Source: Acetatifactor sp. (GTDB lineage: Bacteria; Bacillota; Clostridia; Lachnospirales; Lachnospiraceae). Taken from it: DNA of 64,000 nt. The position numbers were made by a program, and so were the translations under genes. Positions 1 through 22,625 of the stretch are shown piece by piece; position 1 is the stretch's first letter, and each line of letters starts with the position of its first letter. The notes beneath the pieces were generated by a model. The model worked only from the letters and a program-made list of their open reading frames with translations. It searched no databases and was not told where the DNA came from. Location of the stretch: the NCBI GenBank assembly GCA_045542555.1, contig JAZQLH010000029.1:122-64121 (forward strand), written 5' to 3'.

Positions 1-2400
1 CCCGCTGTACTACTCTCTCATAATAGTTTCGCACATCTCGGCCATTGCCAAATTTTTCGCCTTTTTCGGCATCCATTCTTGCAAAATGTTCTTTCAGATA
101 AGGAACGGCTTCTTCGGATATTTCATATTGTTCCTTCACGCAATAAGACCTAAATATCTCAAACATTTCATCCGGAATATAGTCAGGGAAGTCAATAAAG
201 TACTTAAATCGACTTTCTAGACCGGGATTGCTGGCAAGAAAATCCTGCATTTCCTTTTTGTATCCCGCCACAATCACAATCAGATTGTCCCTGTTATCCT
301 CCATAGCTTTTAATATAGTGTTGATTGCCTCCCGGCCAAAATCGCGAGGACTATCCTGAGGACTCAATGTATAGGCCTCATCAATAAACAACACACCACC
401 TAATGCACTATCTATAACTGCTTGCGTTTTGGGGGCAGTTTCTCCTATATATTGTCCAACAAGAGAAGCTCTATCACATTCCACCAGCTTATCTGTCGGA
501 ATAACGCCTATTTCATGAAATACTTGTGCAATAATACGTGCTACCGTTGTTTTACCGGTTCCAGGATTACCTGTGAAAACCATATGCATGGATGCATTTT
601 CAACATTTCTTCCCATCTCCCGGAGCTTTTTTTGTGCAATTATCTTCTTTTTCAGATTAAGCACTTCTATCTTTACAGAATCCAGCCCGATCATTCCGTC
701 CAACTCTTCCAGCGCAGATTTTTGGCTTGTCTGCTCTACTCCGGACTCATCTTCATTCTCTTCTTCAGTTTCATCTGCAATGTCCTCTTTCATAATGGTC
801 ATAAAGTCCATTTCCGTTAATCCGTTGATACCCAGACGACTTATTCTCACATTCTGCTTTTTCAATACTTTTTCAAAGAAATTTCTAACATCTCGACCAT
901 TTGCAAAGTTTTCATTCTTACTATTAATCATCTTTGTCATTTCCTTAATCACAGTTTCCCATGAATCATCAGAAACAACATATCCCCTGCTGTCACAGGT
1001 ATACTTGAAAATCTGAACCATTTCCGCCACAGTATAATCTTCAAAATCCATAAACAGGCTAAATCTTGACTGTAACCCGGGGTTAGTATCTATAAAATCT
1101 TTCATTTCTTTTGTATATCCGGCTACGATTACAATCAGATTATCCCTGTTATCCTCCATAGCCTTCAAAAGAGTATTAATTGCCTCCTGACCAAAATCAC
1201 GTGAACTATCTTTGGGACACAATGCATAAGCTTCAACAATAAATAATACACCACCTAATGCACTGTCAATGACCGCTTGCGTTTTGGGGGCTGTATGACC
1301 TACATGTTGTCCTACAAGAGTTGCTCTGTCACATTCCACTAATTTATCTGTAGGAATAATGCCTATTTCGTGAAAAACCTTTGCAATGATACGTGCTACA
1401 GTTGTTTTACCGGTTCCCGGATTACCTGTAAAGACCATATGCATAGATGCGCTCTCTACATTTCTTCCCATATCCCGAAGCTTCTTCTGTGCTATAATCG
1501 TCTTCTTTAAATTATACACTTCTGCCTTCACAGAATCCAATCCAATCATTCGGTCCAATGCTGCCAGTGCAGAATTTTGACTTGACTGCTTTATTTCTTC
1601 CTCTTCTACAATATCTTCCTTAGAAATCGTCATAAAGTCCATTTCTGATAAACTGTTAATATCCAAACGGCTTATTCTGACATTTTGCTTTTTCAAAACT
1701 TTTTCAAAGAAATTTCTTACATCTCGACCATTCGCAAAAGTTTGTGACTTGTTACGATTTATTTTAGTCATTTCATTAATTACTGCTTGCCATGCATCGT
1801 CAGCAACAACATATCCTTTGCTGTCACAGGTTAATTTAAACATCTGAACCATTTCCGGCACAGTATAATCTTCGAACTCCAAAAACATATTGAATCGTGA
1901 CTGCAAGCCGGGATTACTGTCTATGAAATCTCTCATTTCATTCGTATATCCCGCCACAATCACAATCAGATTATCCCTGTTATCCTCCATAGCCTTCAAA
2001 AGAGTATCAATTGCTTCCTGACCAAAATTATCACCCGCTGAACTGAGTGTATAAGCTTCATCAATAAACAGCACGCCACCCAACGCACTTTCAACAACCT
2101 GTAGTGTTTGGGATGCAGTCTGACCCGAATATTTTGCAACAAGGGATGTTCTGTCACATTCTATCAACTTTTCTGTAGGAATAATACCTATTTCATGCAA
2201 TATTCTTGCAATAATTCTTGCCACTGTGGTCTTACCGGTTCCGGGATTACCTGTAAACACCATATGTAATGACATTTTCTGGGTTTCTTTTCCCATTTCC
2301 TTCAATTTCTGCTGCACTTCCACAAAAGACTTTAAGTTATGAACCTCTTCTTTTACCTTCTGGAGACCAATCATCCGGTCCAATTCATCCATTGCAGACT
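1..2400 (-). repeat. Intragenic tandem triplication of the AAA+ module (period about 825-855 nt)
   Basis: The same block recurs three times in frame: MIGL..VK..V..LK, then MHMVFTGNPGTGKTTVARI, then GGVLFI(D/V)EAY, then MEDNRDNLIVIVAGY, then NPGLQSRF. Modules 2 and 3 are also visibly similar at nucleotide level. Confidence 0.85.
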
Positions 2401-4525
2401 TTTGCCCGGGAAAATCTTCAAATACTTCAACCTTAAACTTTTCATACATTATTTGCTTAAAATTTTCCTCATACGCAATTATCTTTTGCGCTATAGACAA
2501 TAACTCGTCATAATCCTCATAAGAAGAACTATCCTCCACAGCTTGCAAAAGTTCAATGGCTTCTCTGGCAACGCTTACACTTCTCTCCTTTGTCAGCTTG
2601 TTCTTGGCAAGTAAAACATATGCCTCCTTTTGACCACCCTCTACAGCCTTGCTAAGCCATTTCTCTGCCTTTTCCAAATCCTTATCTGTTCCTATACCCT
2701 CCTGATAAGCACATCCCAATCGAAGCATTGAATATGCATCTTTCGCATTTACACCCTTTTTATACCATCTCATTGCCTCCTCAAGATCTCGCTCTACTCC
2801 TTCACCATTTCGGAAAATATCACCAAGTCTTCCCATTGCTTCCGCATATTCATTTTCTGCGGCCTTCCTAAACCATGCTGCAGCCTTGGCAAAATCCTGC
2901 TCTACTCCTCTACCTTTATAATACACCAAACCCAGTGTATACATCGTCCTTGCATGTCCACCATCCGCGGCCTTCCTAAACCACGCAATTGCCTCTGAAT
3001 AATTTTGCTCTACGCCGCTTCCTTCCCAATACATTGCGCCAAGATTACCCATAGCTGCAGCGTATCCTGCATCTGCTGCCTTCTTAAACCACGATATCGC
3101 CTCTAAAAAATCCCGTTCCACGCCCTTACCGGAATAATACAACAAACCCACACTATGCAATGCCTGCGCATATCCGGCATCTGCTGCTTTCCTATACCAT
3201 TCTGCAGCCTTGACATAATCATTCTCTACTCCTTCGCCGTAATAATATGCCTGACCATAATGATACATTCCCTCAACATGTCCTTCTTCTGCCGCATTTC
3301 GGAACCAAATTGCTGCTTTTTCATAATCTTTCTCTACTCCCTGTCCATACTCATACGCCAGGCCAAGATTATCCATTGCAGATTGATTTCCCTTTTCCAC
3401 TGCCTTTTGAAACCATTTTACTGCTTTGTCGTAATCTTTCTCTACTCCCCGGCCATACTTATACGCCAAACCAAGGTGATTCATTGCCTCAACATATTCG
3501 TTTTGTGCCGCTTTTTCAAACCATTTTGCCGCTTTGCTATAATTTCGCTGTATGCCATTTCCTTCATAATATGCCAGACCCAAACTGTACATTGCTTCAA
3601 CATGACCATTTTCTGCTGCCTTTTTGAACCAATCGGCTGCTACGGCCAAATCCTGATTTACCCCACTTCCATTGGCATATGCTTTTCCAAGAATATTCAT
3701 AGCCGAACCGCTTCCTGCTTCCGCTCCTTTTATATACCAATCCATTGCCTTGGCAAAATCTTGTTTTACTCCCTGACCATTTGCGTACAATTGACCGAGA
3801 TTGTACATCGCATAGCCATCTCCGCCATCTGCTCCCTTCTTAAACCACTGAATTGCTTTTGCATAATTTTGTTCTACACCTTGGCCATTCATATATAACA
3901 AGCCGAGACCAGTCTTTGCAGAAGAGTCTCCGGCATTCGCGCCCTTTTTATACCACTCCGCAGCCATATTCGCATCCTGCTCTATTCCATTTCCCTGTAG
4001 ATAAGCATCACCCAGATAACACATAGACTCCGTATCTCCGGCTTCAGCTGCTTTTTGAAACCAAGCAGTTGCCTTAACAGCATCTGCTTCTATATTTTCC
4101 ATAAAATCCTTCCTACAATATGCAAATGCCATATATCTCATAGAGGGAATATGTCCGGATTCTGCTGATTTCTCCAGCCAATAGAAAGCTTTATTAAGGT
4201 CCTTATCAACAATCTGACCTTTGTAATGCTTCGCATACATATCAACCATGGCATCTTCATGACCAAGCTCTGCTGCCAGACTCATCCACTTGATACCCTC
4301 TTTTAAATCTACTTTCACACCCAGTCCCTGATAAAATGCGATTGCCATATTGAACGTTGCATCCAGATTACCGGCAGTAGCAGCCTTATAAAACCAATTC
4401 ACACTTTCTGCCAAATCCTTCTCAACACCTGAGCCCTCCCGATAGGCAAGTCCCAGTTTATTCATCGCCACCGCATCTCCGAACTTCGCCTTCATTTGCC
4501 ATGTAGATATCTTAATATCAGCCAT
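1..4525 (-). CDS. Sel1-repeat protein fused to three tandem CbxX/SpoVK-type AAA+ ATPase modules (N-terminus complete, C-terminus beyond window start; at least 1508 aa)
   Basis: Hand translation of the minus strand from ATG 4525-4523 (RBS GGAGGAG 4534-4540) stays open to nt 1. With no stop in the window it is absent from the ORF track. About 17 Sel1 repeats (A..W..KAA..G...A...LG..Y..G.GVE.D) span nt ~4500-2650. Walker A GNPGTGKTT codons start at 2251, 1426 and 571, all in frame with the ATG. Walker B is LFIDEAY in modules 1 and 3 and LFIVEAY in module 2. Confidence 0.85.
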   Translation of the reverse strand, partial: MADIKISTWQMKAKFGDAVAMNKLGLAYREGSGVEKDLAESVNWFYKAATAGNLDATFNMAIAFYQGLGVKVDLKEGIKWMSLAAELGHEDAMVDMYAKHYKGQIVDKDLNKAFYWLEKSAESGHIPSMRYMAFAYCRKDFMENIEADAVKATAWFQKAAEAGDTESMCYLGDAYLQGNGIEQDANMAAEWYKKGANAGDSSAKTGLGLLYMNGQGVEQNYAKAIQWFKKGADGGDGYAMYNLGQLYANGQGVKQDFAKAMDWYIKGAEAGSGSAMNILGKAYANGSGVNQDLAVAADWFKKAAENGHVEAMYSLGLAYYEGNGIQRNYSKAAKWFEKAAQNEYVEAMNHLGLAYKYGRGVEKDYDKAVKWFQKAVEKGNQSAMDNLGLAYEYGQGVEKDYEKAAIWFRNAAEEGHVEGMYHYGQAYYYGEGVENDYVKAAEWYRKAADAGYAQALHSVGLLYYSGKGVERDFLEAISWFKKAADAGYAAAMGNLGAMYWEGSGVEQNYSEAIAWFRKAADGGHARTMYTLGLVYYKGRGVEQDFAKAAAWFRKAAENEYAEAMGRLGDIFRNGEGVERDLEEAMRWYKKGVNAKDAYSMLRLGCAYQEGIGTDKDLEKAEKWLSKAVEGGQKEAYVLLAKNKLTKERSVSVAREAIELLQAVEDSSSYEDYDELLSIAQKIIAYEENFKQIMYEKFKVEVFEDFPGQKSAMDELDRMIGLQKVKEEVHNLKSFVEVQQKLKEMGKETQKMSLHMVFTGNPGTGKTTVARIIARILHEIGIIPTEKLIECDRTSLVAKYSGQTASQTLQVVESALGGVLFIDEAYTLSSAGDNFGQEAIDTLLKAMEDNRDNLIVIVAGYTNEMRDFIDSNPGLQSRFNMFLEFEDYTVPEMVQMFKLTCDSKGYVVADDAWQAVINEMTKINRNKSQTFANGRDVRNFFEKVLKKQNVRISRLDINSLSEMDFMTISKEDIVEEEEIKQSSQNSALAALDRMIGLDSVKAEVYNLKKTIIAQKKLRDMGRNVESASMHMVFTGNPGTGKTTVARIIAKVFHEIGIIPTDKLVECDRATLVGQHVGHTAPKTQAVIDSALGGVLFIVEAYALCPKDSSRDFGQEAINTLLKAMEDNRDNLIVIVAGYTKEMKDFIDTNPGLQSRFSLFMDFEDYTVAEMVQIFKYTCDSRGYVVSDDSWETVIKEMTKMINSKNENFANGRDVRNFFEKVLKKQNVRISRLGINGLTEMDFMTIMKEDIADETEEENEDESGVEQTSQKSALEELDGMIGLDSVKIEVLNLKKKIIAQKKLREMGRNVENASMHMVFTGNPGTGKTTVARIIAQVFHEIGVIPTDKLVECDRASLVGQYIGETAPKTQAVIDSALGGVLFIDEAYTLSPQDSPRDFGREAINTILKAMEDNRDNLIVIVAGYKKEMQDFLASNPGLESRFKYFIDFPDYIPDEMFEIFRSYCVKEQYEISEEAVPYLKEHFARMDAEKGEKFGNGRDVRNYYERVVQR

Positions 4526-4552
4526 TTGTATTTCTCCTCCCAAAAGTATGAT

Positions 4553-4597
4553 GAAAAGCCAAAGTCATAAATACTTTTTTCAAGACTTTGGCTTTTC
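4553..4597 (-). terminator. Intercistronic 14-bp perfect hairpin between the membrane-protein gene and the Sel1/AAA+ gene (attenuator, processing or stabiliser hairpin; no clear U-tract)
   Basis: GAAAAGCCAAAGTC (4553-4566) pairs with GACTTTGGCTTTTC (4584-4597) across a 17-nt loop. On the minus strand it is followed by ATCATACTTTTGGG, not a clean T-run. Confidence 0.4.
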
Positions 4598-4604
4598 GAA
4601 AATG

Positions 4605-5405
4605 CTATTTATTATTCTTTTTTCTAATCTGCTCCATGATGTCAGCATTAAGTGTTACATCACTCTTTTCTGCCACAACACTACCCGTATTACTGCTTTT
4701 TGCAATTACATTAGGCCTTTTTATCTTAATGCCACCCATGAAAAACAAGACAATGCCAACACCATGTATTACAATGTCAAGTACAATAGCAATTACAACA
4801 AATGTGAAATTATCTTCCGTTGGCGGAAAGGAAAAAGTAAGTATTGTACAAAAAGAAATAAATGTATTTATCAAAGACGGAACAATACCTACTACAAGCC
4901 CTAAAATTCTACAATCCGGCGGAATCCATGTGTCCGACGAACGAAATCCCAAGTACACACCCACAAAATGAAATGCCAGTACTAATACAAAAAAGAGTAC
5001 TCTGGGCATTGGGGACGGCCACTGCATTTCTATAAATGATAAAATTGTTGCAGACGTCATAGATGCAACACAACCGTAACTTGCCGCTAAATTCCATATG
5101 GTTAACTGACTGGAACATATCATTAACAGGAAAATGACGAAGAAGATAAAAATATCTATCTCAACCATAAAAAGCGTATCTGCATCCAACTTGGCCAAAA
5201 GCGTTCTTTCTATCGCAAATACGGACATGGAATCGGCAGAGCCTCCTGTGGCGAAATACCAAACCAGATAGGATATTCCTACCAACATTGTCAACACCAT
5301 TTCTCTGGTATGATTTTGAGCAATATAAGTAATTAACTCAATAAGGACCTTAATAGGAAACGTAAAAAGTTTAAATATTAAAAAGACATCCCATCTTACC
5401 CACAC
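4605..5405 (-). CDS. Polytopic membrane protein, unknown family
   Basis: 266-aa track ORF (GTG start) with multiple hydrophobic segments. Same strand as the Sel1/AAA+ gene, and its stop lies 79 nt upstream of that gene's ATG. Confidence 0.6.
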   Translation of the reverse strand: MWVRWDVFLIFKLFTFPIKVLIELITYIAQNHTREMVLTMLVGISYLVWYFATGGSADSMSVFAIERTLLAKLDADTLFMVEIDIFIFFVIFLLMICSSQLTIWNLAASYGCVASMTSATILSFIEMQWPSPMPRVLFFVLVLAFHFVGVYLGFRSSDTWIPPDCRILGLVVGIVPSLINTFISFCTILTFSFPPTEDNFTFVVIAIVLDIVIHGVGIVLFFMGGIKIKRPNVIAKSSNTGSVVAEKSDVTLNADIMEQIRKKNNK

Positions 5406-5449
5406 AGTCTCTCTTATACCTCCTTCTTCTTAAGTACAATAAATACTAC

Positions 5450-7006
5450 CTACTTTTTCTTTTTGCTGCCCAGAACAACCAGGAATACTATCACGCCTAC
5501 AACACCTACAGCTGCAATAGGTATCAGAATACCCATTTTGCCGGCACCGGAATCTGTTGCCTGCTCCTTTTCAACAGCAACCAATTTGATAGGTTCCCCG
5601 TACATTTCGAATGCTTCATGATATACATCTGTTAAATAATTTCCTTCTTCATCGTGCAAAGACTGGTCAACAATCGTTACTTTATCAACGATTTCGAGCT
5701 CTTCCGAACCATTTGATAAAAGAACCTGTACATTATAAGGACATTCTCTACTTATACGAATAGGAACCATTTCACCTTCGTCACCATAAGGTTGAACTGT
5801 AATGTATTCTGCCAGTTTATCATCTATTGTAATTTCGTAGTCCTTTGGTTCATAATAGAAATAAATCGTCGCATCTCCCTTTGGTGTTACAAAAGAATAG
5901 CTGTACTCTCCAAGATTTTCATTCCATTCCACCTGATAAAATGAAAGTCCGGATGCTCTCAAGTTTACAAACCGATAACCAAGCTTGACATTAGAACGTG
6001 TTCCAACGGTGTATCCTTTATAATGGCCACCCATTCCTATAGGATATCCCAAACCATCTACTGCCACATATGTAACAGAACCTACCTCTTCACCTGTATC
6101 TGCATTTGTTACTATTTCCGGCTCTCTTTGAGTATCTTCAATAACCTCATCGTTTTTAATATCTTCATAATGTCTGGGATTTACAGAATAAATAGCTTCC
6201 ATTTCTTTGCTGTTATCTTCTGCCACTACACCAGAGTCTGCTCCTGTTTTATCTGTATCCACAGATGCATTGGGAGTATTTGTATTTTCGTTAGATGCCT
6301 CCGTTTGCACTTCTTGCTCGTTGCTATTTTCGACAATCTTAGAGTCGTACTCTTTTGCCCACTCCTCAAAATATGCAGAAACTTCACTAATCCACTCTAC
6401 TTCTCCAATTAATACATAGATTCTGGGATCTCCTGCCCCTTCTTCTACTTCTACCCAAATCCCGGGATCTTCTGTATATCCTTCTCCTAATTTAAAATCG
6501 GGGCTCAATGTTTGGATACTACATGCAGTATTTGATCCGTATCCCACATAATTTTCATATCCATAATTATGGAAATTATAATATCCCGGATAGATACCAA
6601 ACTGTGCCTGATGTAACACACCGGTCTCATTTCCGAGCTGTACAGTATCAAGTTTGTTGTATTCCATAGGCATACCCAGGTCAAACTCAAACAGATGGGT
6701 TCCATACGTCTCCTCTGAATCAAACTTTCCCTCAAACTGATATCTTTCAAAGTCGTTCTGTTCGACAGTCCATTTGTCCTGTCGAACAAAGTACATGATA
6801 ACATGTTGCTCTGCTCCACAATGATTGTTTAATTCATACAGCGCTTCATATCCCTCACCGACTCTACTACCAATTTTGCTATTCGTAGCATACTTATCCT
6901 CGTACTCCTTTGCGTACGCAACGGAAGAAAATAGTGTACTAAAAGCCATTAAAGTGCCCAATGCAGAAATTAAACATTTCTTTATCAATTCTTTCTTCAC
7001 TATCAT
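5450..7006 (-). CDS. Secreted, C-terminally membrane-anchored protein of unknown function
   Basis: 518-aa track ORF. Signal peptide ends ..FSSVAYA/KE. An acidic low-complexity linker (ENSNEQEVQTEASNENTNTPNASVDTDK) sits mid-protein. The C-terminus is a TM helix followed by KKKK. Confidence 0.65.
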   Translation of the reverse strand: MIVKKELIKKCLISALGTLMAFSTLFSSVAYAKEYEDKYATNSKIGSRVGEGYEALYELNNHCGAEQHVIMYFVRQDKWTVEQNDFERYQFEGKFDSEETYGTHLFEFDLGMPMEYNKLDTVQLGNETGVLHQAQFGIYPGYYNFHNYGYENYVGYGSNTACSIQTLSPDFKLGEGYTEDPGIWVEVEEGAGDPRIYVLIGEVEWISEVSAYFEEWAKEYDSKIVENSNEQEVQTEASNENTNTPNASVDTDKTGADSGVVAEDNSKEMEAIYSVNPRHYEDIKNDEVIEDTQREPEIVTNADTGEEVGSVTYVAVDGLGYPIGMGGHYKGYTVGTRSNVKLGYRFVNLRASGLSFYQVEWNENLGEYSYSFVTPKGDATIYFYYEPKDYEITIDDKLAEYITVQPYGDEGEMVPIRISRECPYNVQVLLSNGSEELEIVDKVTIVDQSLHDEEGNYLTDVYHEAFEMYGEPIKLVAVEKEQATDSGAGKMGILIPIAAVGVVGVIVFLVVLGSKKKK

Positions 7007-7151
7007 TTTCCCCTCTCTTTTTCTTTTGTTTTGAATATATAATGCGTTTTATATTATAGTATATTTTATAATTCAAGTCAACTAACCCAATACTTATTCC
7101 ACCACTCCAAAACCTATTGTGTAGTATTATAAGTGACAAGGAGGGATTGAT

Positions 7152-7436
7152 ATGGTTGACTTTGGAAACGCTCTGAAAACACTGCGTATAAAAGAAGACA
7201 TGACACAAGCACAACTGGCACAAAAGCTGGGTCTTACAAAATCTGTCATCAGTGCTTACGAAACCAGTCTTCGCCTACCTTCTTATGATGTACTGATTCA
7301 CATTGCGAAAATATTCAATGTAAGCACAGACTATCTGTTGGGCTTAGAGCATAAACAGGAAATAGACTTATCCGGTTTAACCCATGAGGAAATAACTGCC
7401 CTCTTAAATTTAATTGAGGCCATGAGACGACGTTAA
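7152..7436 (+). CDS. XRE-family helix-turn-helix transcriptional regulator
   Basis: 94 aa with HTH_3-like MTQAQLAQKLGLTKSVISAYETSLRLPS. Strong RBS AAGGAGGG precedes the start. It is divergent from the 7006-to-1 gene string. Confidence 0.85.
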   Translation: MVDFGNALKTLRIKEDMTQAQLAQKLGLTKSVISAYETSLRLPSYDVLIHIAKIFNVSTDYLLGLEHKQEIDLSGLTHEEITALLNLIEAMRRR

Positions 7437-7486: not shown

Positions 7487-7520
7487 CAAAAAAAGAGAAG
7501 GTACTTTTACCTTCTCTTTT
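7487..7520. terminator. Bidirectional rho-independent terminator between convergent XRE and CPBP genes
   Basis: GAGAAGGTA (7495-7503) pairs with TACCTTCTC (7508-7516). An A-run lies upstream and a T-run downstream. Confidence 0.6.
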
Positions 7521-7530: not shown

Positions 7531-8352
7531 CTATTCCTCCAAAAGATTTCCCACATGTTTTGTTTCAAAAAACATCTCTTTGTTGGTAAGTACAATTATT
7601 ATAGCTACAATAACGATAAAAATGGTTTCTATACATTTGGTTTCCGGAGTCATATTAATTTTCTCTTGCATAATATTTATGAATATATGAAAAATAATTG
7701 TCGCCAGCATGCTTCTGTTATTCTTTACATATACCCATGTTTGCAGAAAATCAAGGGGAATCACGCTCACAAGGAAATTAAGTACATAGATAATTCCCAT
7801 CTCTCTAAGACCATACTGGTATGTTCCGGGAACCCAAAATAACGGAATATGCCAGCATGCCCATATTACACCAAAAATAATGGACTCCTTAAACCAGTTG
7901 TAATACGCACCTACAGCATCTTCTCCATATCCTCTCCATCCCAATTCTTCTATGCAGGAAGCCAGTAATATGGTAAGTAACGCAGATGTTCCTCCTATGG
8001 AAAAGGAGAAATCTTCTGTAAAAGAAAATTGTTCTGCGGAACCGCCAAACAATATGGAAGTTCCTATAGATGCCACTACTGCGATTGCAAATAAGCAAAC
8101 AGCAAGAACGATGTATCTTGGCTTTATACGGTAGAAACCTACAATTTTTCTCTTAAAGTCCTGCTTTAATGCATTGCTTTTCGATGTTAAAACAGTCACA
8201 ACCGCCACTATGGCAGGAGTCATCAAGCCCAAAAGCATGAACAAAAATAGCAGGGGACTTTCTTTACATAATATAGCAAGCAACCAGAAAAACCATGTTA
8301 CAGCGAATACAGTAATATAAAACCGAAAAGGCCTGTAAGTATAACGTTCCAT
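7531..8352 (-). CDS. CPBP-family (CAAX/Abi-type) intramembrane glutamic metalloprotease
   Basis: Motifs EELGWRGY (EExxxR), FGVIWACWH and HIFIN in a polytopic protein. I prefer ATG 8352 (GGAGG at 8359-8363, 6-nt spacer) to the track start at 8385. Confidence 0.8.
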   Translation of the reverse strand: MERYTYRPFRFYITVFAVTWFFWLLAILCKESPLLFLFMLLGLMTPAIVAVVTVLTSKSNALKQDFKRKIVGFYRIKPRYIVLAVCLFAIAVVASIGTSILFGGSAEQFSFTEDFSFSIGGTSALLTILLASCIEELGWRGYGEDAVGAYYNWFKESIIFGVIWACWHIPLFWVPGTYQYGLREMGIIYVLNFLVSVIPLDFLQTWVYVKNNRSMLATIIFHIFINIMQEKINMTPETKCIETIFIVIVAIIIVLTNKEMFFETKHVGNLLEE

Positions 8353-8353
8353 C

Positions 8354-9235
8354 TTACGCCTCCTCTCTGGTAATGAATAATTCACTCTTCATACCATTCA
8401 GTTCAATATAATTGTCCGCATTTTCCGAAGAGAAATCCTCTACCCGAGTGCCCTGGTTTTCATAGTATATAGCCGTGCCAATCCCTCTTTTTCTCGCTCT
8501 AAAGGAAAAATCATTGGGTACCTTTATTCTTGATATCGCTGAAATCTGATTGATTTCCAGAGCGCCCTCGTGGGAAACAACTTCCACCGACATATCCAAG
8601 TTGCAGTTTATTTCTACCTCGCCCTTGCTGTCCTTGAGATAGACTTCCGTTACTTTGCCATCAAATTCAATGCTTTTACATTCAATATCTGTTATTTCTA
8701 ATCTCTTAGCATTAACAGCAACTTCAACCTTGCCAATATATTTTTGAGGAATGTCAATCCTTATCACAATACCTTCTTTTGCATGTGCCTCTGTTGCTCC
8801 ATTCATTCTTTGCAAGTCAACGTCAATCCTATTTTTCACATCATCTATTTTAATTTTGTAATCACTTTGAAGCTCTTTTATGATGTTTGACAATAGAGAT
8901 ACCTTTATTTTTTCTCCCACATAAGAAGTAAGAATTACAGTATGTGCGCTGCCTAATTTGATATCATAACCCTTAACGCCGTCGATGTCGTATTCGGTTA
9001 TGCTTTCGTATAAATACTCTGACTGTTCCTTTTCACTTTTCCCATTCAGCAAAAGCTCATCTAATGAAATCTGAAACAACTCCGCTATCGCAACCAAATT
9101 AGCTATGTCCGGTGTTCCGGTTCCGTTTTCCCATTTTGTAACGGCTTGTCTGGATACACCAATCATCTCTGCCATCTTCTCTTGGGATATGCCTGCCTGC
9201 TTTCTACAATTTCTGATTTGTTCTTCTAAAGTCAT
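8354..9235 (-). CDS. XRE HTH domain fused to a DUF4097-like beta-strand-repeat domain
   Basis: N-terminus reads AGISQEKMAEMIGVSRQAVTKWENGTGTPDIANLVAIAELFQISLDELL. The C-terminal ~200 aa carry repetitive V.V/I.I beta-strand patterns typical of DUF4097-type proteins. The stop TAA (8356-8354) lies between the RBS and ATG of the CPBP gene. Confidence 0.65.
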   Translation of the reverse strand: MTLEEQIRNCRKQAGISQEKMAEMIGVSRQAVTKWENGTGTPDIANLVAIAELFQISLDELLLNGKSEKEQSEYLYESITEYDIDGVKGYDIKLGSAHTVILTSYVGEKIKVSLLSNIIKELQSDYKIKIDDVKNRIDVDLQRMNGATEAHAKEGIVIRIDIPQKYIGKVEVAVNAKRLEITDIECKSIEFDGKVTEVYLKDSKGEVEINCNLDMSVEVVSHEGALEINQISAISRIKVPNDFSFRARKRGIGTAIYYENQGTRVEDFSSENADNYIELNGMKSELFITREEA

Positions 9236-9520
9236 TTTTAACCTCCGCTATAAAGTTTTGTGAGCTCTCTTGCTCTCTCATAGAGTAGTAAAACAACCTT
9301 TACCAAACAAGAAACACTTGTTGTCATTTGGGTATTTTTCTGCTACTTTCCGTTGCATTTGCATTTTTAAGCCTATTACAGATAGTTTACGCCCGATGGG
9401 AACATCCGTCAATGAATGGCCATTCTAAAAATATCAAAAAAAGAGGCACGCTTGTAACTGCGTTCCTTTTTAGAAAACTTCATATATGTTGGTATAATAA
9501 CGATACTCACTCTTTATTAA

Positions 9521-10537
9521 TTAATCTAACGCTGGTACACTGCTTGGCAGTTCATCTACTTTATCACATGTTGCTATATAATTTTGCAATACGTTATAAA
9601 TCAAGCTTAGATTAGTTTTATCCCCATTTGGATTGAAGGTATATGAATGATAACGTGTATCAATAATAATTATATTAGAATCACCTTCTTCAGGTACATG
9701 TAATCTAACAATCGCAGATTTCTGCCACTTACCATCAGAGCTTATTTCGCCAAGGCTATCCCATTCATAAAGATAGCCGTCTTCCGTAATAACAAAAGCA
9801 CACTCATGTGTATCGCTACCAGATTCTATAGAAGGAGAATAGTATAATCCGCAAACCTCAGAGAGCATATTTGCGTCCAATTCAGCACCTGTTACCACTT
9901 CGTCAAATGTAGGCACCACACAAGTAGAAGGCATTTCACTCATTATATATTCATCGTAACTATGTACATGATCTGCAGCATATTTAGCATAATAAAAATC
10001 GTCTTCTTCATCATAGCGTTCATTTCTTAGTATACGACCATCTGTATGAATGAAACATTCTTCTCCGTCACTTGCTTTTCCAATTATTTTATATGTAGCA
10101 TCACACAAGCTATCCGGTACATGGAATGTCAATACTGTTTCCAACTCAACAGAAGTAACATCATATATTCTTTCTTTTTTCTCCGGGGCCTCATAAAAAT
10201 CCCAAACTACAATTTTTCCATCATCAGTAATAATAACCCCAACTGAATCAAATGCACTATAATAAAGGCCCGAAAGATTCATTTTTTTCATATCAAACTG
10301 GACAGTTACATCCTCAGAACTTGATTCTGTACTTTCTTCTGTAGTTGATTGCGTAGTATCCTCTACAACATCATCAGGTACTGACTCTGTAGTGGACTCA
10401 GTTGTAGTTTCTTCTGTAGATTCAGTCGTTGATTCTATACTGTTTTCTACGTCAGACACATTTCCTTGATTTCCACAACCTGCTAATAATCCCAACAAAC
10501 ATAGTGAACACAAAATAATACGTAAACTTTTTTTCAT
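9521..10537 (-). CDS. Lipoprotein of unknown function
   Basis: Signal peptide with lipobox LLAGC, followed by a Ser/Thr/Glu-rich linker (TTESTEETTTESTTES). Confidence 0.7.
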   Translation of the reverse strand: MKKSLRIILCSLCLLGLLAGCGNQGNVSDVENSIESTTESTEETTTESTTESVPDDVVEDTTQSTTEESTESSSEDVTVQFDMKKMNLSGLYYSAFDSVGVIITDDGKIVVWDFYEAPEKKERIYDVTSVELETVLTFHVPDSLCDATYKIIGKASDGEECFIHTDGRILRNERYDEEDDFYYAKYAADHVHSYDEYIMSEMPSTCVVPTFDEVVTGAELDANMLSEVCGLYYSPSIESGSDTHECAFVITEDGYLYEWDSLGEISSDGKWQKSAIVRLHVPEEGDSNIIIIDTRYHSYTFNPNGDKTNLSLIYNVLQNYIATCDKVDELPSSVPALD

Positions 10538-10682
10538 TCTTTTTTCTCCTTTTAAGTTAATTCTGCAAAACTATACTACTTCTGCACTTTTCAATTGGAA
10601 TTCCTATTTATTATACATTATCAACACTTCATGGTCAATTAGCACCACTGGCTAAGCCGGTGGTGCTAATTGGTTTCTAAGC

Positions 10683-10720
10683 AAAAAAAAGAGAAATACG
10701 GCATTTCTGCTGTATTTCTC
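10683..10720 (-). terminator. Rho-independent terminator, probably the original terminator of the tRNA-Tyr/tRNA-Leu operon displaced by the insertion
   Basis: On the minus strand, stem GAGAAATAC/GTATTTCTC is followed by TTTTTTTT. It lies just outside the left att repeat. Confidence 0.6.
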
Positions 10721-10729
10721 CTACTTCAA

Positions 10730-10754
10730 TTTACTGCTGGTGGCCGGACTTGAA
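10730..10754. repeat. att core repeat, distal copy (duplicated tRNA-Leu 3' end)
   Basis: Identical 25-mer to 15648-15672. The flanking bases differ (10729 A vs 15647 T; 10755 A vs 15673 C). Confidence 0.9.
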
Positions 10755-10813
10755 AACAAAGTCCGATGGCCGGAACATTGATAGAAAGGAGTTTCCGGCT
10801 CTCTCGCTTGGGT

Positions 10814-10832
10814 GTGTAAACGGAGTGTAAAC
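10814..10832. promoter_or_regulatory. Putative integrase arm-type sites: two direct GTGTAAAC octamers spaced 11 bp (left end)
   Basis: GTGTAAAC at 10814-10821 and 10825-10832. The same pair with the same 11-bp spacing sits at the other end (15591-15598 and 15602-15609). Confidence 0.55.
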
Positions 10833-10837
10833 ATCTT

Positions 10838-11113
10838 TTATAACAAGCTATCGTTGAATAGTCTTTCAATATCTCCGGCCTCAAATTTCATATCCTGAAA
10901 CTGTCTAGCCTGCGTCATGGTAACTAAGATATTTGAAACTACCCTGTGCCATGCCTTGTAACGTTCAAGCGATTCTATAATTCTCCCTAAGTCTTGCTTT
11001 GAAATCATAATCATTTCTCCACCTGAAACCGCAACAACTTCACCTTCAACCGCTAATTCTTTGTAAGATAGTCCCAATTCCGTCAATAGTGTTTCTAATT
11101 CTTTTTCTTTCAT
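10838..11113 (-). CDS. Hypothetical protein (islet cargo)
   Basis: 91-aa track ORF with no recognisable motif. AT-rich. Confidence 0.45.
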   Translation of the reverse strand: MKEKELETLLTELGLSYKELAVEGEVVAVSGGEMIMISKQDLGRIIESLERYKAWHRVVSNILVTMTQARQFQDMKFEAGDIERLFNDSLL

Positions 11114-11376
11114 ACTGCAACCTCCACATCTAATTATTTAATTATCTATATTATAATCTTTCCAACTACTATAAGTCCATTTGTAACCTTCACAATTATA
11201 ACTCTTTAATAGAAATTTGGAGGCATTAGTACAACTACTATTATACGTGTATTAAAATTAAAGACTCCTTTCTCTAACCTGCAAAACTTATTTTTTTATT
11301 GACCTTTATGCAATTTGCACAATAAAAGGCATTACCCTATATGGAGTAAAAGGCTTTGTGTTAATGTCCTTCTATT

Positions 11377-11787
11377 CTATCTCCATTGATTCCATTTATT
11401 TACTCGTTTTACTACGTCTTCAGTATTGATAAAACTAACAGGATATACAGCCTCATTTAATGCTTCGTATGTTCCATCTTCTTGTACTTGCTGCAGCACA
11501 ATTCTCAGTTTATTTCGCAACATTGCGCCAAAGGAATTTTGTGCATCTACTTCTGCATATAGATATATTCTTCCATAATTATCTTTATCTTGAATTTCTA
11601 TTGTTTCAAAGTTTACAGTAGAAGGTGCTTTAAGGTGCTTTTTGATACAATCCTTACATGCTTCGATAATTAACTCGTCCATAGTTTTAGGATTTTCATT
11701 TTGAACACTTTTTTCAACTTTTGCACCACATTGAAAACAGAATAATGCATTATCTGATATTTGCGTACCACACTTACTACAAAACAT
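11377..11787 (-). CDS. Zinc-ribbon domain protein (islet cargo)
   Basis: CSKCG..N..FCFQCG is a double CxxC zinc ribbon at the N-terminus. I prefer ATG 11787 (RBS AAAGGAG) to the track start at 11835. A TATAAT-like box lies upstream. Confidence 0.6.
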   Translation of the reverse strand: MFCSKCGTQISDNALFCFQCGAKVEKSVQNENPKTMDELIIEACKDCIKKHLKAPSTVNFETIEIQDKDNYGRIYLYAEVDAQNSFGAMLRNKLRIVLQQVQEDGTYEALNEAVYPVSFINTEDVVKRVNKWNQWR

Positions 11788-11912
11788 ACTCCACACTCCT
11801 TTTATCTTTTTAAATATTATAACATATTTTACCACAATTAGAAAATAATTAGCATAATATTAAAACAACTTTAGAAACAAAAATTCTAAAAAAGATGTAA
11901 ATAAATATATGT

Positions 11913-13445
11913 CTACATTTTCTTAAACAGTTTCCAAGTATATGTCAGATATTTTTCTTCCAATTCATGACCATCAATAAATTCAATATTTACAAGATGA
12001 AATCTATCGTCTTCATCCAAACAATGCACAAGCCTCGTACCTGGATGAATTGCATAGTACAAATTATCGAATTGCGAATGACAATTGGGGCATAGTACGA
12101 CCATATTACCAATTGTGTCATCTCCCTTGTGTATCTTGTTATATGGTCGAATATGATGTGCTTCGGAATAAGCTTCAAATCTTGTTTTCATCAATCTTGT
12201 TCCACACAATTGACAACAATTATTATATGCCAGTTTTAAATTTTCTGCTAAATAAGTACTTCTGACCAAACGTGACAATTCGATATCTTTACTTTTTTGA
12301 TTGTTTTGACTCATTGAATCATATAATACCACATCATCCATACCGATATCATTCTCCTCAGAATATCTATTACAAACAGTTACCCATTCTGCACCTTCTT
12401 CATTTGCATCATCTTCATCTTCAAGGTCTATATTACTTTCGTAGTAATCAACAGCTTTATCATAACTTTCAACTACGTCTGCAATACTAAGAAGATTTGC
12501 AATGCTATTGGGATTATACACTATTCCGTAGTCTGATGTATATTCCTTAGTAGCATTCTTCAATTGCTCATTTGAAAAACCGACCATTGGCAATATGTCT
12601 GCAACACCTCTGCCTTTTGTAGCAACCAAATAATGATAAATTCTACTATAGTTTAACTGTTGGCTACCTACTGTAAGAAATCCATTACTTTTTAACTTAT
12701 AGTTAGCAAATAGATAATTCTGATAACTATTATCAAATGCTTCGTCCTGTGGTGCTCTAAAAAATAGTTCGTCGGAAAGCATATCAATCTTAAAGTAATC
12801 CACATATGCAATAATATACTTTATTATTTCTTCGCCAAGATGAATCCATTTAAGAAGACCGTCATCCGGCTTGTCATCCATTCTAACATTTCTTATTCTT
12901 TGCTCATTTATTAGCACATCATTACATTTTAATTGGCGTATATGTCTCTGTTCAAATATACAAAAATAACAAATTGCACTCATACATTGGGTTATTATTC
13001 TTTCTTCCGTATTCCGAAACTCTCCATCTTTCCCAAGTATAATATTTTGTATATCAGAAAGTGAAATTACGGATTTGTTATTCTTTTCTTTGTTCCCAAT
13101 ATATACAAATTCAAAATCAAATCTCTTATCTAATTTACCCTGCTTAATAAGAAAATCCTTAAGTTTTCTCAATGCAGAACGTATTACTAAACTTCTTCTA
13201 TAATTCTGTTGAAAATCTATTATTCTATCTTCAGAAAAAATACTTTCATAATCCGCATCATCCACCTGATTACGAACTTCATTAAGCAAATATTCTTTGA
13301 CAATATCTACATATAAATTCTTTGTAGATTCTTTCTTTTCTGCTACAAATTCAGTAAATTCATTGACAATCGTGCTTATTTCTTGATATGTAATAGCCCC
13401 CACAAATTTACCCTCCTTTATTTGCTCTACAGTATTATAAATCAT
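11913..13445 (-). CDS. HNH endonuclease-domain fusion protein; the N-terminal ~330 aa possibly form a degenerate tyrosine-recombinase-like DNA-binding module
   Basis: C-terminal HNH motif: CQLCG..(14)..AHHIRP..(12)..GNMVVLCPNCH. N-terminal segments resemble an integrase SAM-like/core-binding region (YRRSLVIRSALRKLKDFLIKQGKL) and a decayed catalytic fold (FEQRHIRQL, LNYSRIYHYLV). Confidence 0.7.
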   Translation of the reverse strand: MIYNTVEQIKEGKFVGAITYQEISTIVNEFTEFVAEKKESTKNLYVDIVKEYLLNEVRNQVDDADYESIFSEDRIIDFQQNYRRSLVIRSALRKLKDFLIKQGKLDKRFDFEFVYIGNKEKNNKSVISLSDIQNIILGKDGEFRNTEERIITQCMSAICYFCIFEQRHIRQLKCNDVLINEQRIRNVRMDDKPDDGLLKWIHLGEEIIKYIIAYVDYFKIDMLSDELFFRAPQDEAFDNSYQNYLFANYKLKSNGFLTVGSQQLNYSRIYHYLVATKGRGVADILPMVGFSNEQLKNATKEYTSDYGIVYNPNSIANLLSIADVVESYDKAVDYYESNIDLEDEDDANEEGAEWVTVCNRYSEENDIGMDDVVLYDSMSQNNQKSKDIELSRLVRSTYLAENLKLAYNNCCQLCGTRLMKTRFEAYSEAHHIRPYNKIHKGDDTIGNMVVLCPNCHSQFDNLYYAIHPGTRLVHCLDEDDRFHLVNIEFIDGHELEEKYLTYTWKLFKKM

Positions 13446-13586
13446 TGTATCACATCACTTACATTTGTAAAATGAATTTATATTTCCATTCACTTTATAA
13501 AAAGTTTATAATTTTCCCTCTAAATAGATATTCATTTCCCACCGATACCAATATTACACAACAAAATAAAAATAGTTCCTTAAACG

Positions 13587-13634
13587 GCAAGACAATTTAA
13601 GAAGCATTCTGCTTCTGATATGTCTTGCTTTTTT
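13587..13634 (+). terminator. Terminator-like hairpin plus T-run in the islet's divergent control region
   Basis: GCAAGACA (13587-13594) pairs with TGTCTTGC (13621-13628). There is an inner GAAGC/GCTTC stem, and TTTTTT follows. Confidence 0.4.
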
Positions 13635-13823
13635 ATATGCAAAAGTAACCTTGTCATCTTATTACATTACTTTTGATTAATTACTACTTCTGTCTCGGTA
13701 ATTTTTCTAAAAGGACAAAAAAGACACGTTTTCATCTGTTTTGGAAGCAAAAAACAAAGTCAACAAATTAATTTATATTAATTACCGTCAAAATCGGTAA
13801 CTTTCAAGGAGGTATTAATTACT

Positions 13824-14246
13824 ATGGATAATTACGAAAGCAGACCTTTATATTCCATGCCATTTCCCAAACCGCTTAAGGAAATGACGGACGAGGAATT
13901 AAACAATCTTCTTACCGGGAAATTCAATTACAATGTACTAATCCCGGCGTTAATTGAAGCTCACTTGCGGAAAGATGAGCAAATCGCCGTACTTACCAAG
14001 CGAATTGCCTATCTTGAACAAAAGGCTCTCCAAAAGCCCGGACGTCCTCGCAGGGAGTTTTGGATTGACGGCCGGGAACTGACAGACGAGTACCTAATGG
14101 AACTGATTGACTACGGCTATTATGATAGCATCAGCAAACTAGAAAAGGAATTACACGCCGGTAAAAATCAGCTCCGCAATCGCTACAACAAAGCAAAAGA
14201 GAAGCAACTTCTAGAAAGGAAGGTAAAAAGTTATGGGAATAGTTAG
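13824..14246 (+). CDS. Small islet protein upstream of and overlapping the integrase gene (possible excisionase or regulator)
   Basis: 140 aa with RBS AAGGAGG. Contains a basic KPGRPRREF segment. It overlaps the integrase start by 14 nt. Confidence 0.5.
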   Translation: MDNYESRPLYSMPFPKPLKEMTDEELNNLLTGKFNYNVLIPALIEAHLRKDEQIAVLTKRIAYLEQKALQKPGRPRREFWIDGRELTDEYLMELIDYGYYDSISKLEKELHAGKNQLRNRYNKAKEKQLLERKVKSYGNS

Positions 14247-15579
14247 ACCAATCGTGCAGGAGTGGTGCGTACCCCAACAGTACACCTCTTCGCCGGAAGT
14301 AATCAAAAACTGCTTGCAGGAAGTCTTAGAAGATAGTATTCTTAAGCCACAAGCGAGCGAGCCGGATAATGAAGATATGAGAAAAGAAAAAAGAGAACGC
14401 ATTATCAAGGCACACATGGAGAAATATACAACTAAATATTATGAGTCAGACAACAGATGGCATTCTTTCCTGCCGGATGAAACCCTTCCACGAAAAATGC
14501 GACCCATTGCCAAGCGAAAGTTTGAAGACTTAGAAAAGGCCATCCTTGCCTATTATGAGGAGCAGGAGCAGATAAAGAACCGCAAGAAAATGACGCTCCG
14601 CAGACTTTACCCGGAATGGTTTGCCTACAAATGGCAAGACACCAACAATTCCAACTACATGAAGCATATCGAAGGCGAATGGAAACGGCATTATGTGGAT
14701 GACCCCATTATTGACCGCCCTGTTGTAGAATTTACTACTCTAGAGCTCAAAAACTGGGCAAGAAGTAAGATTGTAGCCGGACACATGACCAAGAAGCAGT
14801 ATTACAACATGGCAATCATCATTCGCCAGAGCTTGGACTACCTTGTGGAGCTTGGGGAACTGTCTACCAATCCTTATGCCAACTTCAAGATTAATCCCTC
14901 ACTATTTACGCCTGCCAAGCACAAAGAGGCAGAAGAAAGGGTATTTATTGAAGATGAGGAAAAGCAATTGAAGCAGATTGCTCTAAAGGATTTTGCCGAA
15001 CACCCGGAGCATATCGGTGCGGCAGCGGTGCTTATCAATCTATCCTTGGGACTTCGTGTATCAGAACTTGTTGGTCTTAAGTGGAAAGACCTAAAAGACG
15101 GTTATCTGCATATCCGACGCATGGAGCAGAAGCAATGGGAACGACATGCAGACGGCACTTGGAAATCCTATCTGGCAGTTGTGGAGCATACCAAATCCAC
15201 CGCCGGCGTCAGAACCCTTTATGTGGTTTCCTCTTCTCTTGCCTTATTTGAGCAAGTACGGGAAGCCAACAGACAAAGAGGTTATGGTTGCGAGCCGGAA
15301 GATTATATTTTCCAACATGCCGGAAATCGGATTACAGCTAATTCCATTGACAGCTACTATGAGCGGTACTGTAAACAACTTGGAATTGCCAAGAAGGGGA
15401 ATCACGGTGCAAGAAGAACGGCATTAACTAAGATTGCCGACAATCCCAACATTAACCTAAAGGACGCCATGGAATGGGCAGGACACCGGGATGTAAAGAC
15501 TTTTATAAATCACTACTGCTATTCCCGATACTCTGACGAACAGAAAAGAAATGAACTGGAGAAAACCCTAAATCTCTAG
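14233..15579 (+). CDS. int: Tyrosine-type site-specific integrase
   Basis: Catalytic signature present: GLRVSELVGLKW (Arg), HGARRT (His-x-x-Arg), GHRDVKTFINHYCY (His..Tyr). Adjacent to the att core and tRNA-Leu. Confidence 0.9.
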   Translation: MGIVRPIVQEWCVPQQYTSSPEVIKNCLQEVLEDSILKPQASEPDNEDMRKEKRERIIKAHMEKYTTKYYESDNRWHSFLPDETLPRKMRPIAKRKFEDLEKAILAYYEEQEQIKNRKKMTLRRLYPEWFAYKWQDTNNSNYMKHIEGEWKRHYVDDPIIDRPVVEFTTLELKNWARSKIVAGHMTKKQYYNMAIIIRQSLDYLVELGELSTNPYANFKINPSLFTPAKHKEAEERVFIEDEEKQLKQIALKDFAEHPEHIGAAAVLINLSLGLRVSELVGLKWKDLKDGYLHIRRMEQKQWERHADGTWKSYLAVVEHTKSTAGVRTLYVVSSSLALFEQVREANRQRGYGCEPEDYIFQHAGNRITANSIDSYYERYCKQLGIAKKGNHGARRTALTKIADNPNINLKDAMEWAGHRDVKTFINHYCYSRYSDEQKRNELEKTLNL

Positions 15580-15590
15580 TATTTATCAGC

Positions 15591-15622
15591 GTGTAAACAT
15601 GGTGTAAACAAATTTACACACA
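15591..15622. promoter_or_regulatory. Putative integrase arm-type sites (right end): two direct GTGTAAAC octamers spaced 11 bp plus one inverted GTGTGTAAA copy
   Basis: GTGTAAAC at 15591-15598 and 15602-15609. TTTACACAC (reverse complement GTGTGTAAA) at 15613-15621. Confidence 0.55.
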
Positions 15623-15647
15623 AAAAATCCAGCATTTCTGCTGGATT

Positions 15648-15672
15648 TTTACTGCTGGTGGCCGGACTTGAA
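15648..15672. repeat. att core repeat, tRNA-proximal copy
   Basis: Identical 25-mer to 10730-10754. Positions 15653-15672 are the 3' end of tRNA-Leu. Confidence 0.9.
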
Positions 15673-15736
15673 CCGGCACGGGGTTGCCCCCGAGGGATTT
15701 TAAGTCCCTTGCGTCTGCCTATTCCGCCACACCAGC
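15653..15736 (-). tRNA. tRNA-Leu (anticodon UAA), class II with long variable arm, no encoded CCA
   Basis: Hand fold: acceptor GCTGGTG/CACCAGC, anticodon stem AGGGA/TCCCT with loop CTTAAAA, variable arm CGGGGGCAACCCCGT, T-arm GCCGG-TTCAAGT-CCGGC, discriminator A. Confidence 0.9.
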
Positions 15737-22078: not shown

Positions 22079-22100
22079 TTTACTTTACTCCTGCTTCGTT

Positions 22101-22625
22101 TTAATCAAATTCTACAACTCCGATATAGGGAAGATTTCGATATTTCTGATCGTAATCCAGACCATATCCCACAACAAACTCATCCGGAATCTGGAATCCT
22201 GTGTAATCCACATCCACATCCACCACTCGTCTGTCGGGCTTATCCAACAGAGTGCACAGTCTCATGGTAGCCGGTCCGCGACCCTGAAGCATCTCCAACA
22301 GATAACTCAGTGTCCGTCCGCTGTCCACAATATCCTCCACCACAATCACATCCTTGTCCTTGATGGACTCATCCAAATCCTTTACAATCTTTACCACGCC
22401 GCTGGACTTCGTATCGCCTCCGTAACTGGAAACGGACATAAAGTCCATGGTTACGGGAACAGTAATGCGCTTCGCCAGCTCACACATAAAAAAGCTGCCG
22501 CCCTTTAACACGCAAATCAAATGAACCTCTCTATCATAATAATCCTTGCTGATTTGTTCACCAATCTGTTTAATACGCGCATCTACTTCCTCTTCCGATA
22601 AAAGCATCTTAATACGTTCCATCAT
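22101..22625 (-). CDS. hpt: Hypoxanthine phosphoribosyltransferase
   Basis: PRPP-binding motif VIVVEDIVDSGRTLSYL. Sits in the conserved tilS-hpt-ftsH order. I prefer ATG 22625 (RBS GGAGGAAG). Confidence 0.93.
   Translation of the reverse strand: MMERIKMLLSEEEVDARIKQIGEQISKDYYDREVHLICVLKGGSFFMCELAKRITVPVTMDFMSVSSYGGDTKSSGVVKIVKDLDESIKDKDVIVVEDIVDSGRTLSYLLEMLQGRGPATMRLCTLLDKPDRRVVDVDVDYTGFQIPDEFVVGYGLDYDQKYRNLPYIGVVEFD

Follow-up and report, generated by a model that had tools for sequence, protein, structure and literature searches.

The means by which mobile elements and phages are excluded from the Lachnospiraceae, a dominant, genetically poorly studied group of gut bacteria, are little understood. 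The Gram-positive exclusion proteins encoded by such elements include PrgA/Sea1 of pCF10, YddJ of ICEBs1, Ltp of phage TP-J34, and Sie2009. To our knowledge, these are LPXTG-anchored proteins, lipoproteins, or small membrane proteins, and a polytopic partner with 6 to 7 transmembrane (TM) helices is not required by any of them. Here, we describe a two-gene cassette that encodes a predicted 518-amino-acid (aa) surface protein and a predicted 266-aa polytopic membrane protein in a 64,000-nt stretch of DNA from Acetatifactor sp. (this whole stretch is called the window, and positions refer to it). The pair resembles PrgA/Sea1, YddJ, Ltp, and Sie2009 in its predicted envelope location and in being encoded by an element near a regulatory or integration module; with PrgA, the 518-aa protein also shares a head-on-stalk design. 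The pair differs from these proteins in that PHROGs, Pfam, and NCBIfam gave no sequence or profile similarity to any of them.

A preliminary description of this locus had proposed a four-gene module consisting of the two cassette genes, a gene for a large Sel1/3xAAA+ ATPase on the same strand, and a divergent XRE-type regulator gene. Its open reading frame (ORF) coordinates all agreed with our ORF map, as did the gaps of 44, 79, and 145 nt between the genes. The module itself survived only in part: when co-occurrence was examined in other genomes, the 518-aa/266-aa pair and an XRE-type neighbor were found together again, whereas the ATPase was absent from the other pair loci. Rather than a four-gene system, the organization is very probably that of a mobile two-gene envelope cassette lying beside a divergent XRE regulator.

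The evidence for this organization comes from a small number of loci. Among 5.8 billion clustered proteins, the 518-aa protein had only five relatives, and a word-indexed single-sequence search of the clustered proteins returned no relative of the 266-aa protein. The 518-aa homologues all came from metagenome assemblies (Logan, ENA), and the contigs carrying them, L001, L002, L003, and L004 among them, were fetched and read. In both L002 and L003, a gene for a 245-aa membrane protein follows the gene for a 513-aa homologue; in L001, a gene for a 253-aa membrane protein precedes that for a 512-aa homologue, so that the order is swapped relative to the window. The 518-aa homologues in L001 and L002/L003 are 53 to 60% identical to the window protein, and the membrane proteins are 29 to 36% identical to the 266-aa protein (BLASTP, 1e-30 and 1e-29). 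The pair was thus adjacent in 3 of 3 testable contexts of the long, stalk-bearing form of the surface protein (the window, L001, and L002/L003); L004 could not be scored for pairing because its contig stops 145 nt past the 518-aa homologue. A profile of the three 266-aa family sequences matched only the pair loci among all fetched DNA. Comparison of the window with L002 by tblastx showed homology confined to window positions 4737 to 7033, i.e., to the two genes. By the same method, L001 and L002 were seen to be related elements in which the membrane protein gene has switched sides and is still adjacent. A phrog_1 tyrosine integrase gene lies 0.6 to 2.5 kb downstream of the cassette in L001 and L002 and is decayed in L002. 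No Sel1 or AAA+ gene was present in L001, L002, or L003. As judged from these sequences, the conserved unit is a set of two genes that are found together in unrelated contexts and whose order is flexible.

Alternatively, the pair could consist of two independent accessory genes hitch-hiking within one family of related elements. The pairing is backed by two independent lineages only, gene order is not fixed, and short-form relatives of the surface protein (described below) do without the partner. However, the window and L001/L002 share these two genes alone, with homology that begins and ends at the gene edges, and adjacency survived a rearrangement that changed their order. Moreover, across the 5.8 billion clustered proteins, GTDB representative genomes, and IMG/VR, the 266-aa family is known only beside the long form. 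Hitch-hiking is therefore improbable, and we retain the view that the two genes travel as a cassette.

The ATPase is the most conspicuous of the four genes. Pfam bore out its earlier assignment as a Sel1 protein with three AAA+ modules, giving 16 Sel1 stretches and three AAA plus AAA_lid_6 modules. The frame is open for 1,508 codons, with no stop, up to the window start; the protein is predicted to be cytoplasmic, and its C terminus lies beyond the window. The 16 Sel1 repeats cover aa ~1 to 640 and are followed by three tandem AAA+ modules of the CbbX/SpoVK/EccA type. NCBIfam scores, summed for the spore_V_K, EccA, and CbbX models, were 811, 707, and 667 bits, and PDB matches included CbbX (3syk/3zuh, E of 3e-58) and EccA1 (9lur, 4e-51). 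The Walker A motif GNPGTGKT is intact in all three modules, Walker B reads IDEA, IVEA, and IDEA in turn, and NPGLxSRF occurs three times; with AAA and AAA_lid_6 domains, Walker A, Walker B, and the arginine-finger region, the protein belongs to the CbbX/SpoVK/EccA clade. Module 2, with IVEA in place of IDEA, may be catalytically impaired. The modules (window positions 1 to 2420) are tandem duplicates whose DNA is 72 to 84% identical, with a period of ~830 to 855 nt.

Members of the CbbX/SpoVK/EccA clade are dedicated protein remodelers. Like EccA, which joins tetratricopeptide repeats (TPRs) to AAA+, the ATPase has an N-terminal helical-repeat platform; unlike members of the clade, which have one module, it has three, and it carries 16 Sel1 repeats instead of the EccA TPRs. 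No RuBisCO, ESX/type VII secretion system (T7SS), or sporulation context is visible, and no ESX/T7SS core genes (EccC/EssC etc.) were found at window positions 4.5 to 25 kb, the DNA downstream of the ATPase gene being outside the window. SpoVK is a dedicated chaperone of MurG, which it activates (PMC11513918). SpoVK proper (TIGR02881, a single-module protein of ~320 aa with a sporulation context) was rejected as an identity for this protein of at least 1,508 aa, with Sel1 repeats and three modules; the TIGR02881 cutoff is exceeded only because three modules are summed. The IetA models of PADLOC also match the AAA modules (E of 7e-30). Membership in IetAS/IteA was likewise rejected, with 95.8 bits for the NCBIfam IteA model against a cutoff of 510 and no adjacent IetS-type protease within view, and the similarity to IetA/IteA is generic to the AAA+ clade. 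Searches of GTDB representative genomes, JGI metagenomes, plasmids, and phages turned up no close ATPase orthologue. Its nearest relatives are 33 to 49% identical over the AAA part only and have other architectures and other neighbors, with an FAD oxidoreductase gene beside a 3xAAA+M41 form and DHH and TruB genes beside the single-module forms. One distant relative of 1,746 aa (L006, positions 7745 to 12985, from a Clostridia metagenome-assembled genome [MAG]) has three AAA modules and a C-terminal FtsH-type M41 peptidase; given this fusion, the C terminus of the window ATPase could carry a further domain.

Could the four genes nonetheless form one system, with a surface sensor, a membrane signal relay, an ATPase effector or remodeler, and an XRE regulator? 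The three leftward genes share a strand and are separated by short gaps (44 and 79 nt), the minus strand lacks promoter-like sites from position 7053 to the start of the ATPase gene, and the intergenic hairpin is only 27 nt away from the ATPase ATG. In addition, the 266-aa protein has a longer tail in the window, which could in principle be a Sel1 ligand. However, the ATPase is missing from every other locus with the pair, a stable terminator-like hairpin stands between the pair and the ATPase gene, the relatives of the ATPase elsewhere differ in architecture and neighbors, and its GC content is 41%, compared to 37 to 39% for the pair. The co-occurrence comparison weakens this view, and we consider a four-gene system quite improbable. 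From the loci compared, the ATPase is a neighbor of the two-gene cassette that occurs with the pair only in this genome and does not belong to the conserved set. Its cotranscription with the pair in this genome is plausible as operon adjacency rather than as a conserved system.

The preliminary description had reported no recognizable domain in the 518-aa protein. This was true for PHROGs, NCBIfam, and PADLOC, which returned no family, and for Pfam, which gave no match for the protein or any of 29 family members even at an E of <=1, but it did not hold for profile and fold evidence. The protein begins with a hydrophobic signal peptide (aa 1 to 32, ending VAYA|KEY) that is kept in all homologues, and it ends with a Gly/Ala/Val-rich TM helix (aa 493 to 514) followed by KKKK. 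No LPXTG motif, and hence no sortase anchor, was found in the protein (C terminus ...GKMGILIPIAAVGVVGVIVFLVVLGSKKKK) or in its homologues. A structural model computed by AlphaFold2 (AF2) from 29 sequences had a mean predicted local distance difference test (pLDDT) score of 76; an earlier run with 6 sequences gave 45.9 and was unusable. In the model, aa ~33 to 237 form a head, a beta-rich domain of ~190 aa that ends in a long helix (pLDDT, 83 to 98). An acidic, disordered linker follows (aa ~238 to 296; pLDDT below 50), and aa ~297 to 480 are beta-rich and comprise two divergent InlB-B-repeat-like units.

When 1.84 billion representative proteins were searched with the family profile, 43 matched; the E value was <=1e-10 for 17 of these, most of which span the head. 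Profile positions 1 to 260 recur in proteins of ~313 to 325 aa, the short form, which consist of a signal peptide, head, acidic linker, and TM anchor. Positions ~300 to 440 match large surface proteins built of Pfam Flg_new_2 "divergent InlB B-repeat" units, with E values down to 1e-12, and the matches recur at 75-residue intervals, the period of the repeat. With Foldseek, the AF2 model matched phage "bacterial repeat domain-containing" proteins over ~180 to 220 columns (E of 5e-8, probability of 1.0). A whole-chain fold search against the PDB found nothing significant (best E of 0.013, TM-score below 0.2); the weak matches are tandem immunoglobulin (Ig)-like adhesion molecules and invasin-type adhesins. 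An alignment search with the head only gave no match, the 518-aa family had no member in GTDB representative genomes, IMG/VR, or JGI metagenomes, and tblastn against phage and plasmid (PLSDB) records gave nothing for it. Remote-homology searches, which had been suggested for both proteins, thus placed the stalk of the 518-aa protein (by profile and Foldseek) but not the 266-aa protein, for which a PDB profile search gave no match.

Taken together, the head, linker, repeats, and TM anchor describe, in the model, a type I TM-anchored head-on-stalk surface protein with a B-repeat stalk. The predicted head domain is new, and the predicted stalk consists of divergent B-repeats missed by the Pfam model itself. 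The likeness to Flg_new_2 (PF18998) and Flg_new (PF09479) lies in the 75-aa-period profile and fold match, the extracytoplasmic location, and the beta-rich structure. The differences are that the Pfam models are blind to the 518-aa protein, that only two repeat units are present, and that these form a membrane-proximal stalk under a head with no sequence or fold relative. Furthermore, unlike Flg_new_2 proteins, the 518-aa protein uses a TM helix as its anchor and is accompanied by a dedicated polytopic partner. Short-form head proteins of 313 to 325 aa were found in L013/L014/L015, L099, L100, L101, and L005, with the conserved gene order UvrD-like helicase, ~970-aa DUF4116-like protein, head protein, and RecJ-like exonuclease. 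These contigs, up to 70 kb long, have few PHROG matches and could be found neither among GTDB representative genomes nor in IMG/VR.

The gene for the 266-aa protein has a GTG start 13 nt past GGAGG. Hydropathy analysis gave five segments above threshold and two candidates just below it, i.e., five to seven predicted TM helices. Conserved features of the family are a GIVPSL..F..FC motif and an acidic residue (D/E) in the last TM helix, and the window protein has a longer predicted cytoplasmic tail (~45 aa) than its homologues do. The protein had no match in Pfam, PHROGs, PADLOC, NCBIfam, or the PDB, and searches for the family by profile, in GTDB representatives, and in IMG/VR gave nothing beyond the partner loci. 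Since it is found only beside the long form and is absent with the short form, its presence goes along with that of the B-repeat stalk and Gly-rich anchor. We infer that the 266-aa and 518-aa proteins form a membrane complex.

The earlier assignment of an XRE-type regulator to the divergent gene was upheld, as its 94-aa product matched HTH_3 at 57.6 bits (cutoff, 23; E of 1.3e-15), which places it among XRE/Cro-C1 regulators. It also matched the RstR-like phage repressor subfamily at 65.5 bits, below the cutoff of 80, and phrog_8 (E of 6e-23). In L001, L002, and L003, too, an HTH_3 gene is divergent from the cassette promoter. BLASTP found no alignment between the XRE proteins of L001/L002 and that of the window, and these predicted regulators are analogous rather than orthologous. 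In L001 (positions 230 to 300) and L002 (positions 830 to 885), the interval between a 76-aa XRE gene and the cassette has an extended -10 promoter-like site flanked by a repeated motif, TTTGCA(A/C)ATGCACA, which is probably the operator of that XRE. The motif is absent from the spacer of the window, whose XRE differs.

The spacer between the regulator gene and the cassette (positions 7007 to 7151) had been described as AT rich, and we measured a GC content of 29%. It contains weak inverted repeats and two divergent promoter-like sites whose -10 boxes overlap. The minus-strand site (TTGACT-17-TATAAT, 7081 to 7053) matches 11 of 12 consensus positions and is the only minus-strand site between positions 4300 and 7600, and the plus-strand site (TTGAAT-18-TATAGT, 7031 to 7060; 9 of 12) faces the XRE gene. 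The perfect 14-bp hairpin noted previously after the 266-aa gene is real (-22.7 kcal/mol, z = -4.3), and none of 200 shuffled sequences folded as well. It has a 14-bp outer stem and an inner 4-bp stem, with the core stem GCCAAAGUC/GACUUUGGC flanked by GAAAA and UUUUC and then followed by AUCAUACUUUU. It resembles a bidirectional intrinsic terminator with a short U-run and is located 27 nt from the ATPase ATG. Given the hairpin, this spacing, and the lack of a promoter-like site belonging to the ATPase gene, the cassette probably ends at the hairpin, with the ATPase expressed by read-through. In L002, a hairpin and then a new promoter-like site follow the cassette, and L001 has a terminator-like site at positions 3443 to 3477. 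Rfam detected nothing but tRNAs in window positions 1 to 16 kb. The features of the locus are collected in Table 1.

Table 1. Features of the cassette locus and its immediate surroundings in the window
Feature	Position	Strand	Basis or remark
XRE/Cro-C1-type helix-turn-helix (HTH) regulator, 94 aa	7152..7436	+	HTH_3; divergent from cassette
Overlapping divergent promoter-like sites	7031..7081	both	Consensus scan; 29% GC spacer
Predicted type I membrane-anchored surface protein, 518 aa	5450..7006	-	ORF, profile, AF2, Foldseek
Predicted polytopic membrane partner, 266 aa	4605..5405	-	ORF, hydropathy, homologues beside 518-aa homologues
Terminator-like hairpin, probable cassette end	4553..4597	-	Folding energy, shuffles
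Sel1/3xAAA+ ATPase gene, at least 1,508 aa, truncated by window edge	1..4525	-	ORF, Pfam, NCBIfam, PDB
Bidirectional terminator-like hairpin, 13-bp stem, T-run on minus strand	7491..7520	.	Closes XRE and convergent CPBP genes

We then considered the genomic setting. Core genes on the right-hand side, which assign the window to an Acetatifactor species, encode an amylase, FtsH, TilS, and a SpoIIE-domain protein, and the amylase protein is 90% identical to those of Acetatifactor MAGs. A tRNA-Leu gene (15653 to 15736, minus strand) is next to a tyrosine integrase gene (14233 to 15579). The 3' end of tRNA-Leu is repeated directly and perfectly over 25 bp, at 10730 to 10754 and 15648 to 15672, and the two copies bound an integrative element of 4.9 kb and 36% GC (window positions 10730 to 15672). 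The same integrase, at 97 to 99% aa identity, occurs in the Acetatifactor MAG loci L016 and L017, and the cargo in L016 differs. We rejected the possibility that this integrase and the cassette are parts of one element, since the 25-bp repeats bound a separate element. None of the genes in window positions 1 to 10.7 kb was found in 80 related Lachnospiraceae loci, apart from one weak match to the HTH of a 293-aa XRE protein, and these genes individually have 36 to 41% GC and the region 36 to 39%, compared to 43% for the core. The cassette lies in a variable, low-GC accessory stretch beside a tRNA-Leu integration hot spot of an Acetatifactor chromosome.

Several other genes were noted in this region. 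The 4.9-kb element contains, in addition to the integrase gene, a 140-aa ORF and genes for a 510-aa HNH-domain protein (11913 to 13445) and a Zn-ribbon protein (11377 to 11835). Between the element and the XRE gene of the cassette lie a gene for a 338-aa lipoprotein (9521 to 10537), a minus-strand gene for the 293-aa XRE-HTH protein, which has a C-terminal domain (8354 to 9235; it overlaps the next gene by 32 nt), and a minus-strand gene for a homologue of CPBP/Rce1-like intramembrane proteases (7531 to 8385; 255 bits for the MmRce1 model, below the cutoff of 425). The latter two genes make up a second pair of a regulator and a membrane protein. In L016, just past an attachment site (att) remnant, positions 21564 to 22176 contain a perfect tandem repeat (45 nt x 2.1) and then a homologue of the CptN toxin (PDB 4rmo, E of 4e-78) that Pfam missed; by these features, the L016 locus is a type III CptIN toxin-antitoxin of the abortive-infection kind.

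What the cassette does is a matter of tentative choice between two kinds of function. One possible, though doubtful, role is the exclusion of incoming phage or element DNA at the level of the envelope (superinfection or surface exclusion). We favor this guess because the cassette lies between a regulator and an integrase in L001/L002, because its neighborhood is accessory and defense-like, and because the surface protein is anchored in the membrane rather than in the wall. A related genome (L016) has the CptIN abortive-infection toxin-antitoxin at a spot equivalent to the window region. The cassette could also be adhesin or colonization cargo, in which the head would bind a host or dietary glycan, mucin, or a cell and the 266-aa protein would be a chaperone or stabilizer. 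Flg_new_2-like B-repeats are typical of surface proteins of Firmicutes and Bacteroidota, the weak PDB fold matches are Ig-like adhesion molecules and invasin-type adhesins, and the protein has a head-on-stalk design. The homologues are all metagenomic, and a pig gut record (L014, short form only) is among them. However, with a TM helix and no LPXTG or wall-binding domains, the head may not clear the thick wall, and the PDB fold matches are not significant by either measure given above. In addition, the position of the cassette between a regulator and an integrase in L001/L002 and its neighbors in the window region (regulators, CPBP protease-like, HNH) fit cargo for element benefit or immunity as well or better. 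We consider adhesion unlikely. No database or structural evidence discriminates between exclusion and adhesion.

We propose the following working model, in which the cassette serves exclusion. The XRE protein would bind the 145-bp spacer over the overlapping -10 boxes and thereby set the level of a leftward transcript. This transcript would cover the 518-aa and 266-aa genes and largely stop at the hairpin, and the ATPase gene, for which no separate promoter-like site was detected, would be supplied by read-through. The 518-aa protein would be exported by Sec, cleaved after VAYA, and retained in the membrane by its C-terminal helix, so that its two B-repeat-like domains and acidic linker form a stalk holding the head within or at the cell wall. 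The 266-aa protein would dock the anchor, forming a membrane complex, and the complex would act for the mobile element at the envelope; its most likely task would be to keep out incoming phage or element DNA. Taken as a whole (cassette, regulation, envelope complex, and exclusion), this is our best explanation, and we put it at slightly short of an even chance.

Several observations weigh against this model. The independent lineages effectively number only two, one being the window and the other the element family of L001/L002/L003. Short-form head proteins are found without a 266-aa partner when the 266-aa profile is run over the fetched DNA, which suggests that the head can act without that protein, and the proposed physical contact between the 518-aa and 266-aa proteins is deduced solely from the adjacency of their genes. 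Promoters and terminators were recognized by consensus matching only. The window cassette has no integrase of its own in view and lies to the left of, and outside, the element bounded by the 25-bp repeats. The head domain has no structural match in the whole-chain PDB fold search, neither protein has homology to characterized exclusion, defense, or adhesion proteins, and PADLOC, PHROGs, Pfam, NCBIfam, and the PDB are empty for both.

A more elaborate possibility is that the head protein and the 266-aa protein are a new, element-borne envelope system of gut Lachnospiraceae, serving exclusion or as an outside-in phage sensor, that is coupled here by read-through to the ATPase as a three-tier device. 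We regard this as highly improbable; if true, the three tiers would be a surface sensor, a membrane transducer, and a cytoplasmic AAA+ effector. The locus also holds a more general lesson, as genes packed closely on one strand of an accessory island did not turn out to be a conserved module, and the eye-catching ATPase is a nonconserved neighbor. The cassette is novel at the family level and is documented by very few loci. If its role in exclusion or defense is true, the cassette would add a protein family and a two-component design that are both new, the design being that of an anchored head-on-stalk protein with a polytopic partner. Even without an assigned function, a rare, undescribed extracytoplasmic domain family has now been delimited.

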